Shown: positions 27,603 to 32,263, counted from the stretch's first letter. The stretch: 64,000 bases of DNA from Candidatus Aenigmatarchaeota archaeon (GCA_043814985.1 JBDRJK010000019.1:1-64000); one strand, 5' to 3'. Numbers and translations: made by a program. The notes: generated from the sequence alone by a model not told the origin.

Positions 27603-30285
27603 GATCATCATGATCAATGATACCAGCAGAGGCAGAAGGTAGGGTCTGAGCAGTAATGCCAATAGGTGGATAGCTCAGTTCTCGAGATTGATGAAGATCC
27701 TAGCAAGCTGGGATAAGCTCGGGCTAGGCGCAAGCAGCCTTTGAACCCGAGATAGTTGAATGCGACATCGCACTGGTTTCGGCCAGTGATTCGAAAGAAT
27801 CAAGAACCCGCTGAACTGAAGCATCTTAGTAAGCGGAGGAGGAGAAAGCAAACGCGATTCCGTTATTAACGGCGAGTGAAAACGGAACAGAGCAAACCGA
27901 ATTGCTGCAGAAATGCAGTTTAGATGTGGTGCCTGGTACAGCTTAGCTGGTTGACTCGAAGTCGCCTGGAATGGCGCACTATAAACTGTGATAGTCAGGT
28001 AGAGGAAGACCGGAAAGTTGATTCAGGAAAAGACTACCATTTCTTGGATATGAAGTGGGAATACGGCTGGCATCAACAGCCAACTCTAAATATTTCGAGA
28101 GTCTGATAGCGGATAAGTAAGGTAACTGAAAGCTGAAAAGTATTCTTAACAGAAGATGAAAAGATCTTGAAACCTATTGGTTATAGTCATCTATGGTCTG
28201 AAAGGTGCTCTTGTGAAGGAAAGTTGAGTGATCAACATATACGAGCAGGAGCTTACAGGATTATAGAATCCGTTTTGAAACACGGAGCAGGGAGTTTGTC
28301 TTTGTGGCGAGCATAATTGCTTCAAGCAAGTATGCATAGCGAAAGCGAAAAGTGCGTAGCGCAAGCATGGCACTGGGTCTGAAAGGGCCTGCAGTCACAG
28401 GGGCAAGACCAGAAAGCACTTGATCTAACCCATGTCAGGATGAAGCGTAGCGAAAGCTGCGTGGAGGTCCGAACCATTGTTGAGCTGCAAATCACTAGGA
28501 TGAGCAGGGGTTAGGGGTGAAAAGCCAAACGAACGTGCTGATAGCTGGTTCCTTCCGAAATATGTCTTAGCATAGCCTTGTCTGAGATAGCTAAAAGGGT
28601 AAAGCACTGATTGAGGAGTCAAGGGAAGAAATTCCCAACTTCCCTGTCAAACTAATAATCTATTAGCGTCGTAGAAGACAGGAGTGCGGGTGCTGGGGTA
28701 AGCCCGGTATCCGAAAAGGGAACAACCTAGACTAAGGTTAAGGTCCCTAATTCTTAGCTAATTCACAAAGTTTGTCCCAGTCCTAAAACAGGAGGGGCGT
28801 AGGCTTAGAAGTTGCCATCGCATAATCAACGTGTAATAACGGACCTCTCTAGGTCTGGGGCGGCGAAAATGGATGGGAGTAAGTTAAGAACCGATACCTT
28901 AGATTGCGAAAGCAATAGTATAGGAAGGCGTTCTGCTTGGGTAGAAGCATCTGCGTAAGCAGGTGTGGACCGGGCAGAATTGAAAATCCTGCTGGGAGTA
29001 GCAGCAAAGAAAGGTTAGAATCCTTTCCACCTGAAGGATCAGGTTTTCACGACAACATTTATTGGTCGTGAGTTAGTCAGTCCTAACCCCACCCTTAACT
29101 GACGTGGGGGAAGGTAAACATGTTAATATTCATGTACCACGGGCATACGTGTGGCAACACAAGCTCGGCTGTAGACGCTTTAGGATATGCTGACGTAAGT
29201 TAAGCAGTTAAAACCAGGGAGTTCCGTCAAGGAGAGAACTGGTCGAATCTGTGAACAGCTCTGCTGTATAGCGGAGTTCAGCAAATTCCAAGAGCCCATG
29301 AAAATATAGCCGGGAAGGATTGTTCGTGTCTGTACTGAGAACCGATACAGGTATCCTTGCTGAGAAGGTAATGGTGTGTCGAGTGATCCCAATTTAGGGA
29401 ATTGGGCAAATTAGAGTCGTATGTTTGCTAGAAGACTTGCCTATGCAGAAGTGCATAGGTTGCAATAACAAGGAGGAAGCGACTGTTTAACAAAAACATA
29501 GCTGACTGCTAAGGAGAAATCCCTTGTATAGTCGGTGAGGCCTGCCCAGTGCGAGTGTGTCAAAGCTGGTTTCAACCGGCCTAAGCCCTCGTCAACGGCG
29601 GCGGTAACTCTGACCGTCTTAAGGTAGCGTAATCCCTTGTCGATTAAATGTCGACCTGCATGAATGGCTTAACGACTTCCTCACTGTCCCAAATTGGGGC
29701 TCGGCGAAACTGCTATTGTGGTGCATAGGCCACAGACCCTCAGGGGGAAGAGAAGACCCCGTGGATCTTTGCGGTAGCCTGTCGTTGTTGTATGGTTACA
29801 ATTGCATAGCGTAGGTAGTAGTTGTTATGTTAGAGCTTTCGGGCTCTAAATAGACGACAATGTAACACTGCCCTTTTGTAAACATGTAACTAACCCCAAA
29901 ATTTTGGGGAACACCGATTGGTAGACCGCTTGGCTGGGGCGGTACACTCTTGACAAAATATCAAGAGTGCCCAAAGTGATCCTCATCTCCGTCAGAAATG
30001 GAGAGTAGAGTGTAAGCGTAAAAGGATCATTTATTGGATTCAACATAGCAATGAATCCAATTGTGAAAGCATGGGCTAACGAGATGCCGAGCGTTCTTGA
30101 TGGATATCGGTAGTTTCAGAAAAGTTACCCCGGGGATAATGGAGTCGTGGCGGGTGAGAGCTCACATCGACCCCGCGCGTTGCTTCATCGCTGTCGGCTT
30201 CCCCTCTCCTGGCCGTGCAGTAGCGGCCAAGGGTACAGGTGTTCACTGGTTAAAAGGGGACATTAGCTGGGTTCAGTACGTCGTG

Positions 30286-30521
30286 ATCTGATATGGGTTT
30301 ATCTCTTCTCTTTGTATAGCATGATTAGCTTTAGCAATAGCTAGCGATGAAATCATGTGATCGAGTATGGATTAGGGCGATGACTGCACCGCCCCCTTTA
30401 GAATATCTATATATGATAGATAATTCGGGTGTAACTTATGAGCCAATTTTCAATCGATGCTGTGATGAATTGACATTAACTGTCTTGATGAACAGCAAAG
30501 ATTTTCCATATCAGACGACAA
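30286..30521 (+). other. Archaeal BHB-type intron in 23S rRNA helix 93 loop (after E. coli G2597)
   Basis: GTCG-TGA-TCTGATATGG ... CCATATCAGA-CGAC-AAA. Cleavage after the second nucleotide of each bulge restores the conserved GTCGTG|AGACAG. Confidence 0.9.
30371..30447 (+). ncRNA. Intron-encoded box C/D guide RNA; predicted to guide Gm2251
   Basis: C GCGATGA 30377-30383; guide ACCGCCCC 30388-30395 pairs with GGGGCGGT 29936-29943; D' TAGA 30399; C' TAGATAA 30417; second guide 30424-30437; D ATGA 30438. Confidence 0.65.
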
Positions 30522-30889
30522 AGACAGTACGGTCTCTAACTACTGAGGGTGTTATTACCTGACTCTAAGGAAGAATGAGTACGAAAGGAACGTTCTTCCG
30601 TGGCCTCTGGTTAACCGGTTATCTTTTGGTAACGCCGGGTAGCTACGCCATAGCTTTTAACAGCTGAAAGCATCTAAGCTGGAAATTGCCGGGAAAAATA
30701 GGTAATTGGCACAGATAGACTATCTGTTTAATGGGACAGGGATGTAAGCACGAAGCTTCGGCGACGTGTTCAGTTCACTGTTTCCAAGCCTTTTAGCTCA
30801 GACCCCTTTAATTGCCTCTGCTGGTAAAATCTCATTGGTTTTACCGCTTAGCGTTAGCTATATAAAGCTTTAGTTTTAACTATTAGGAA

Positions 30890-31995: not shown

Positions 31996-32263
31996 GTGGG
32001 CTGGGTAGACAGCTGCCCCTGTTAAGGGAGGAAATTCCATCCACCATTAGCCTCAAAGGCTTGCCGTCCCTCGGGATTAGGCTGAAAAGCTTAGGTGTCC
32101 AATAGGGCTTCATGTTCGACTTGGACGATGCTGGCAAGGTGCAAGACCAAACAGCTCTGATGACGAAAGAGGAGCGGGTAGGTTGCATCAGACGAATGCT
32201 GTCAAGCAGGAGTGATTGTTTTTACAGGATCTGCTCACAGAAGATGGATTATGCCCAGGCCAC
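31996..32263 (+). ncRNA. rnpB: RNase P RNA
   Basis: GAGGAAATTCCATC (32028-32041) and ACAGAAGATGGATTAT (32237-32252) form the P4 pseudoknot; P1 is GTGGGCTGGGTA/TGCCCAGGCCAC; T-run follows. Confidence 0.9.

Follow-up and report, generated by a model that had tools for sequence, protein, structure and literature searches.

A spliced intron in the 23S rRNA gene of an aenigmatarchaeal genome probably carries a dual-guide box C/D sRNA for its own host rRNA

In archaea, the guides for rRNA modification usually have genes of their own, and in eukaryotes they are located in introns of unrelated host genes. To our knowledge, tRNA-Trp is the only described case in which a guide lies inside an intron of its own target. 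This box C/D guide in the archaeal pre-tRNA-Trp intron has been described in Haloferax volcanii and, as sR50, in Pyrococcus (PMC7994747). The consulted part of the same paper gives tRNA introns, positions downstream of tRNAs and intergenic regions as the contexts of archaeal C/D sRNAs, an rRNA intron not being named there.

The RNA described below and both of its predicted targets, a guanosine of the P loop and a uridine of helix 74, are of a known kind. In the consulted portions of PMC4644070, the position numbered G2520 is equated with E. coli G2251 and guides for it are predicted in three of seven archaeal species, and Additional file 1 directs sR7 of Thermoproteus tenax to G2520 and U2544 and assigns sR14 of Nanoarchaeum equitans to a uridine of helix 74 (U2712 in that numbering). 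For H. marismortui, Table 1 of PMC11542601, a source consulted in part, gives Gm1950 as the equivalent of E. coli Gm2251; PMC2584109, which PMC11542601 cites, places Gm1950 in helix 69, at E. coli position 1909, and has no Gm2251 equivalent for H. marismortui. Our full-text literature search yielded no published case of a guide RNA hosted in an rRNA intron or in the flanks of a 23S gene; papers beyond that search could report one.

Here, a stretch of 64,000 nucleotides (the window) from the genome of a Candidatus Aenigmatarchaeota archaeon was analysed, the features of the 23S locus being on the plus strand. The genome assembly (G000) comprises about 0.8 Mb in 21 contigs, with a completeness of 91%; it belongs to one genus (g1) with G001, its sister species, and G002. 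An archaeal 23S rRNA gene was found at 27642..30805 (Rfam RF02540, 2416 bits, model positions 1-2987), and its Rfam alignment is broken once, in the helix 93 loop, where about 237 nt are inserted after ...ACGUCGUG. We propose, with a probability of about 0.8, that the intron at this site carries a dual-guide box C/D sRNA for methylation of the equivalents of E. coli G2251 and U2438 in the rRNA of its own host gene, a reading drawn from comparative sequence analysis.

The insertion corresponds to a bulge-helix-bulge intron of 236 nt (30286..30521), located after what we take to be the equivalent of E. coli G2597. The 5' half of its splice motif (30280..30296) consists of the central strand GUCG (30280-83), the bulge UGA (30284-86) and an intron strand (30287-96), and the 3' half (30506..30522) consists of an intron strand (30506-15), the central strand CGAC (30516-19) and the bulge AAA (30520-22). 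Exon GUCG pairs with intron CGAC to form 4 bp between the two 3-nt bulges, and this central helix is extended by an intron helix of 10 bp (30287-96 with 30506-15). Since the helix on the exon side is weak, the motif is a relaxed one. Cuts are predicted after 30285 and after 30521, that is, after the second base of each bulge, which would release a 236-nt intron and restore GUCGUG joined to AGACAG. Among the homologous introns, the central helix is kept and the intron helix is altered by compensatory substitutions.

The intron is absent from assembled RNA. Contigs from three metatranscriptome studies (X8, X12 and X13) and from one DNA run (X2) were mapped on 30000-30800. The exons, up to 30286 and again from 30522, are covered in all three RNA runs, while the X2 DNA contig runs through the whole intron. 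In X8 and X12, two contigs each start with (AG)TACGTCGTG and continue at 30522, exactly the predicted junction, and one of these junction contigs matches 30522-30600 without a mismatch. No RNA contig from X8, X12 or X13 covers 30297-30512, a result from assembled contigs, which cannot show small RNAs. The junction contigs could in principle derive from intron-less kin; the two closest genomes, G001 and G002, also have the helix 93 intron. The locus thus combines 3-nt bulges around a 4-bp helix and symmetric cuts with absence from RNA contigs in a genome that encodes the splicing endonuclease EndA (97.6 bits), and the tRNA-splicing endonuclease would be the enzyme that removes the 236-nt intron.

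When 61 related genomes were searched with the intron DNA, 8 of them, G000 counted, proved to have it at the corresponding rRNA position. A search of Rfam at a permissive threshold returned nothing significant on this intron (best E 0.89) or on that of a relative (best E 3.3). The rRNA genes of the order to which the window belongs are multiply interrupted. The 23S genes of G023 and G025 (L041-L045) have, in addition to the helix 93 intron, extra insertions in the peptidyl-transferase loop, directly after its GGGGAUA, and G014, G004 and G010 have a second insertion in 23S domain V (L020 1821-1868, minus strand; similar in L019 and L021), which holds a bare k-turn hairpin (stem, AAUGA ... AAGA, stem) with a weak match of 24.7 bits to the C/D model described below. 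In G000 itself, the 16S rRNA gene is on a separate contig (C21:1700-3285), so that at least 27 kb lie between the 16S and 23S genes; with 1586 nt it exceeds the Rfam model length by about 100 nt and may therefore hold an insertion. An archaeal RNase P RNA lies at 31997-32262, about 1.2 kb downstream of the 23S gene.

The original prediction, made from this DNA alone, had proposed an intron-encoded C/D RNA with guides for the P loop and for helix 74, and all the motifs that it named were found in the sequence where it had placed them. Exact 8-mer complements between the intron and mature 23S rRNA numbered 10, compared to 10.45 +/- 4.05 in 500 shuffles. Complementarity in the single sequence is thus at chance level, and the case rests on conservation in relatives. 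We built a covariance model, R1, on eight intron copies. Its match in the window spans 30368-30453, scores 68.5 bits and keeps every invariant base. Each positive genome has one copy, and positive genomes amount to 11 of 21 in the family, 25 of 42 in the order and 55 of 151 in an even sample of the class. The guide is therefore conserved among homologous introns, on which the original prediction had made itself depend, and the intron-borne dual-guide RNA that it had put forward is supported by the homologues, by covariation in the stem, by the pattern of variation in guide 1 and by covariation of guide 2 with its target.

The sRNA proper spans 30376..30444 and is closed by a terminal stem of 30376-78 with 30442-44. 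In alignment A2, which holds the 26 R1 matches and was fitted to the model structure, a procedure that favours that structure, 85.6% of the terminal-stem positions are paired and the stem covariation is 0.662, compared to 0.240 in shuffled alignments (0 of 500 reach 0.662) and to at most 0.164 with the partners slid. Its three inner pairs are formed in 26 of 26 rows, with three to four pair types each. Counts for single columns refer to 25 rows, the 26th, a weak second match in L020, being left out. In the window, the stem is followed by a k-turn with the bulge GAU (30379-81), G.A pairs from GA 30382-83 and GA 30440-41, then N.U and U-A. The four G.A bases are invariant (25/25), the bulge reads N-A-U with U in 25 and A in 24 of 25 rows, and A13, U14, G15 and A16 of the alignment, which are positions of the C box, are conserved in 24-25 of 25. 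At the pair between C-box position 6 and the first base of the D box, which is G-C in canonical boxes, U-A occurs 21 times, A-U three times and C-G once.

These columns define a C box AUGACUG at 30380..30386, which contributes the sheared GA at 30382-83 and the end of the 3-nt bulge at 30379-81, and a D box AUGA at 30438..30441, whose GA is present in 25 of 25 rows and whose first base pairs with C-box position 6. Both boxes are non-canonical (AUGANUN versus RUGAUGA for C, AUGA versus CUGA for D), so that a C/D k-turn with invariant G.A bases and a covarying stem is built here from variant boxes. Across the homologous introns, the conserved block consists of a short stem, AUGA, 4 nt, ACCG(C/U)CCC, 3 nt, then a hairpin, another conserved stretch, a second AUGA and the strand that completes the stem. 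The C box had previously been read as GCGATGA. This sequence does occur, at 30377-83, but it is displaced by 3 nt from the conserved register: UAAUGA or AAAUGA stands at this place in relatives, so GCGAUGA cannot be the conserved box and only AUGA (30380-83) is shared. With AUGACUG at 30380-86 as the C box, the spacer to the D' box becomes 12 nt, the archaeal norm.

That spacer (30387..30398) holds the first guide and ends at the D' box UAGA (30399..30402), an NNGA motif that is found exactly 12 nt past the C box in 16 of 25 homologues. A connector hairpin between D' and C' follows (30404..30422), and it includes the C' candidate AUGAUAG (30413-19). The C' box originally suggested, UAGAUAA, is not supported, its letters being absent in relatives; AUGAUAG is the better candidate and matches AUGAUAA in the sister species. 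The hairpin at 30401-26 that was feared to compete with the sRNA fold exists, but it is the ordinary D'-C' connector, present in most relatives, rather than a competitor; in the window it is 6 bases longer than in G001. The second guide, the 12-nt CGGGUGUAACUU (30426..30437), directly precedes the D box.

The internal boxes are degenerate in this family of genomes, in agreement with the earlier description of the boxes as degenerate: D' reads UAGA, and 18 nt separate D from the C' candidate, part of which is in the hairpin. Among the 25 homologues, a C'-like motif occurs in 11 and a clean 12-nt layout in six, and no internal D' or C' motif of any kind is present in G032 and G027. Distant families retain a clean C-12-D'-hairpin-C'-12-D layout.

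Guide 1 is directed to the P loop, GGGGCGGU (29936..29943). ACCGCCCC at 30388-95 is the exact complement of GGGGCGGT at 29936-43, and, as first predicted, the fifth base upstream of D' TAGA (30399-402) is C30394, paired to G29937. This nucleotide, the predicted 2'-O-methylation site, is the second G of the P-loop GGGG run and presumably the equivalent of E. coli G2251. The guide makes 8 bp in the window versus 9 in most relatives, and with 12-mer scoring the P-loop match does not rank first among the 23S sites. Across 25 rows, guide 1 reads A-C-C-G-N-C-C-C, where N is C in 14 and U in 11, with one further C-to-U change at position 2. All these changes lie opposite G of the invariant P loop, so the pairing is kept, and the guide is the most conserved stretch of the whole C/D RNA. 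The GA of D' is retained at the exact distance in the genus of the window, and in the 16 of 25 homologues with NNGA at 12 nt, counting five bases upstream always leads to the third C, which faces the second P-loop G.

Guide 2 is directed to the 5' strand of helix 74, AAGUUACCCCGG (30122..30133). TTCGGGTGTAACTT is found at 30424-37, followed by ATGA at 30438-41, and the fifth base upstream of this D box is A30433, paired to U30126, again as first predicted. Of the 12 positions of the D guide (30426-37), 10 form Watson-Crick pairs with mature 23S positions 2481-92, its best site, leaving one mismatch or bulge in the window. The predicted site, U30126, corresponds to E. coli U2438 by the E. coli row and ruler in the consulted supplement of PMC4644070. 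Mature positions 2763-74 of 23S rRNA were also considered as a site for the relatives' guide 2 and were rejected, as they fit the rRNA of the window and not the relatives' own sequence.

The helix 74 pairing covaries. Guide 2 reads GGAGUAGCU in most of the order, opposite the target AAGCUACCCC, and GGGUGUAACUU in the genus of the window, opposite AAGUUACCCC. Among the 15 genomes of the order with a readable helix 74, a target U faces a guide A in four (G000, G002 and G001 of one genus, and G025 of another family) and a target C faces a guide G in 11, with no discordant case. Outside the order, AGUUACCU lies opposite AGGUAACU in G087, also covarying, and AGCUACUCU opposite AGAGUAGCU in G045, where two target changes are answered by two guide changes; the pairing amounts to 9-10 bp without a mismatch in G076 and to 7 bp in G166. 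The one-bulge pairing given in the original prediction is borne out by the free-standing relatives, which show that the guide of the order has one extra base. Complementarity to rRNA has thus been maintained in evolution, by C-to-U changes opposite G only in guide 1 and by covariation in guide 2, and the spacing is that of a guide: a 12-nt spacer between C and D', 12 nt before D lying on helix 74, and position 5 falling on G29937 and U30126.

In the proposed mechanism, the terminal stem, the 3-nt bulge and the two tandem G.A pairs would form a k-turn that serves as a platform for L7Ae, Nop5 and fibrillarin. ACCGCCCC in the spacer would pair with the P loop, with D' UAGA putting G29937 at the methylation position, and the 12 nt before box D would pair with the 5' strand of helix 74, putting U30126 there. 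As the two targets are 300-450 nt upstream of the guide on one transcript, the RNA could act in cis, on nascent pre-23S rRNA that still has the intron, or in trans once the intron has been excised, presumably as a stable processed RNA. Methyl transfer would be performed by fibrillarin, which is encoded together with Nop5 in adjacent genes on contig 5 of G000. No SpoU/RlmB-type methyltransferase was found in the G000 genome.

The only match to the L7Ae family (PF01248) in G000 is L30e, encoded between rpoA'' and nusA. True L7Ae proteins are encoded in G001, G003, G013 and G006 (91-106 bits) and were not found in the G000 and G002 assemblies. The 3.2-kb neighbourhood of the G001 L7Ae locus has no counterpart in G000 by tblastn, blastn or tblastx, and G002 is also without it. 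Since the whole neighbourhood is absent, the missing L7Ae of G000 likely reflects an assembly gap.

We then compared where the sRNA gene sits. Among the 25 positive genomes of the order, the unit lies in the helix 93 intron in 21, in the 23S flanks in three and elsewhere in one. The flanking copies are 143 nt (G023) and 40 nt (G025) before the 5' end of 23S and 75 nt after its 3' end (G011), and in all three genomes the helix 93 intron is still present without a C/D unit. In the remaining genome, G022, no rRNA was found within 1.5 kb of the unit, and a 23S probe had no match anywhere in the assembly. Seventeen loci from other orders of the class have the unit as a free-standing gene with full C, D', C' and D boxes. 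Neither exon motif was found at 16 of these loci, and at the other one a loose match to the 5' motif lies about 970 nt off. Helix 93 is uninterrupted in G087, G166 and G045, the three genomes with free-standing copies that were read, which supplies the free-standing guide in intron-less relatives for which the original prediction had suggested looking. By these comparisons, the RNA of the window does belong to a DPANN family of C/D sRNAs and has moved into a spliced intron of the very gene whose RNA it is predicted to target.

The physical tie to the 23S gene, seen in 24 of the 25 positive genomes of the order, would also suit an RNP of the C/D type that pairs with the P loop and helix 74 as a chaperone of domain V folding or assembly until the intron is removed, without methylating either site. 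Both targets belong to the peptidyl-transferase region, near the intron site, and the internal boxes are degenerate or absent in many members, with NNGA at D' in just 16 of 25 and nothing of the kind in G032 and G027. We nevertheless regard this role as improbable, because the 12-nt spacers and a position 5 within both duplexes are exactly the spacing of methylation guides, the free-standing relatives possess the full set of boxes, and ordinary methylation guides are assigned to both sites in other archaea in the consulted part of PMC4644070.

The weakness of the internal boxes could alternatively mean that only the D guide, for helix 74, is active in G000, the P-loop element being a conserved pairing segment whose D' and C' have decayed and G2251 being unmethylated. 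A D' box reading UAGA, a C' candidate held in a hairpin 18 nt from D and a guide 1 of just 8 bp instead of 9 would agree with such a loss; the confinement of substitutions in guide 1, the most conserved stretch, to C-to-U changes that preserve pairing, and the exact distance of the D' GA throughout the genus, make it very improbable. That the motifs are a chance constellation, or a dead relic in a selfish intron, is what degenerate boxes and complementarity at chance level in one sequence would suggest on their own, and it is hardly credible for an RNA that is conserved in 55 of 151 genomes of the class, covaries both in its stem and with its target, and in the window still scores 68.5 bits with all invariant bases present. 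A dual methylation guide thus remains our preferred reading of the unit.

The best-conserved part of the intron, ahead of the C/D unit, is a hairpin at 30299..30376, defined by alignment A3, pair counts and model R2. It comprises a lower stem, an internal loop, a stem of 30320-26 with 30351-57, GA at 30349-50 and an apical hairpin (30328-45). A further possible C/D unit had been suspected here, at 30308-64; alignment and covariation show a conserved k-turn hairpin instead. In 11 copies, the order is lower stem, internal loop, upper stem (5-7 bp), k-turn and apical hairpin, and in most relatives the k-turn has an AAU bulge and GA/GA. The stems (P1, P2 and apical) are 88.6% paired, with a covariation of 0.453 versus 0.219 in shuffles (reached in 0 of 500). 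The copy of the window departs from this pattern in having one clear G.A pair only, a shifted P1 register and other loop sequences. Model R2 matched 13 of the 151 class genomes, 12 in the order of the window and one (G137), free-standing, in another order; the 12 matches in the order lie in the helix 93 intron wherever the surroundings were read, G023 and G025 included. In G011, whose intron (L016) is without the C/D unit, the k-turn element shows a tandem duplication of its apical hairpin.

With its lower stem, internal-loop pocket, upper stem and k-turn above, this conserved hairpin resembles an archaeal H/ACA guide in layout. Cbf5 with a PUA domain and Nop10 are encoded in G000. By eye, 7 of 10 relatives have ACA or AUA at a distance of 14-16 nt past the upper stem, and neither triplet occurs at that distance from the pocket in the copy of the window. 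A weak candidate for an H/ACA target is the uridine at +15 of exon 2, which ranked first in 2 of 11 genomes, fourth in 1 of 11 and outside the top four in 8 of 11, with scores around background. A site in helix 94 (mature position 2676), the best in the rRNA of the window, was rejected, as the genomes of family f7 have no U there.

Two more elements are C/D-like. A third k-turn unit at 30459..30496, with the stem GCUGU/ACAGC, GUGAUGA and AUGA, is present in G000 and G002 only and is a weak, species-specific candidate. Its spacer includes ACUGUCU, which complements AGACAGU at the start of exon 2 (30522-28), a 7-mer match that is within chance. Family f7 has longer helix 93 introns, and those in L029, L031, L032, L037 and L027, the introns of G038, G040, G035, G039 and G026, respectively, include another conserved unit of C/D-like type (AUGA ... 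GAAGUCACA ... a UGA/CGA box, with a closing stem). For this unit, no convincing target was found in the rRNAs of the window, the best sites reaching 9.5-10 of 14.

It is conceivable, if rather unlikely, that the helix 93 intron of the order is a dedicated guide-RNA host whose C/D, H/ACA-like and further C/D-like units act in cis on nascent 23S rRNA. If so, modification or folding of the peptidyl-transferase centre would be coupled to splicing, and the intron would be an archaeal counterpart of the eukaryotic snoRNA host introns, within the rRNA itself. The sRNA family can be traced from free-standing genes in other orders, via the leader and trailer of 23S, to the 23S intron, a series of locations in which one can study the route of guides into introns and the importance, if any, of being transcribed together with the target. 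A further prediction is that very small DPANN genomes retain the near-universal P-loop methylation by means of an RNA guide and not of an RlmB-type enzyme.

Compared with the known systems, the predicted P-loop modification has its functional parallel in RlmB of E. coli and in the eukaryotic C/D snoRNPs for Gm2251 equivalents, by which the P-loop nucleotide, one of universal importance, is ribose-methylated, according to the consulted part of PMC11542601. RlmB is a protein-only enzyme of the SpoU type, a family of which G000 has yielded no gene. T. tenax sR7 and the other sRNAs for the G2251 equivalent are, like the RNA of the window, C/D guides for the P-loop guanosine; as far as the consulted part of PMC4644070 describes them, they differ in having another second target (U2544 in T. 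tenax), in being free-standing and in belonging to hyperthermophiles. N. equitans sR14, again as described in the consulted part of PMC4644070, shares the helix 74 uridine as a target and includes GGAGUAGCU in its D guide, whereas it is free-standing, has a D' guide without a predicted target and lacks a P-loop guide.

Similar in composition are the free-standing dual-guide C/D sRNAs of other DPANN archaea, which have the P-loop guide, the helix 74 guide and the k-turn in common with the RNA of the window, but are encoded on their own and have canonical C, D', C' and D boxes. Similar in arrangement is the pre-tRNA-Trp guide. In the consulted part of its description (PMC7994747), it is likewise located inside a protein-spliced intron of its own target RNA and has two guides for two nearby nucleotides. 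The host there is a tRNA and the targets are adjacent, whereas here the host is 23S rRNA, the targets are 300-450 nt off, and the intron combines a guide with variant AUGA/AUGA boxes with further structured elements.
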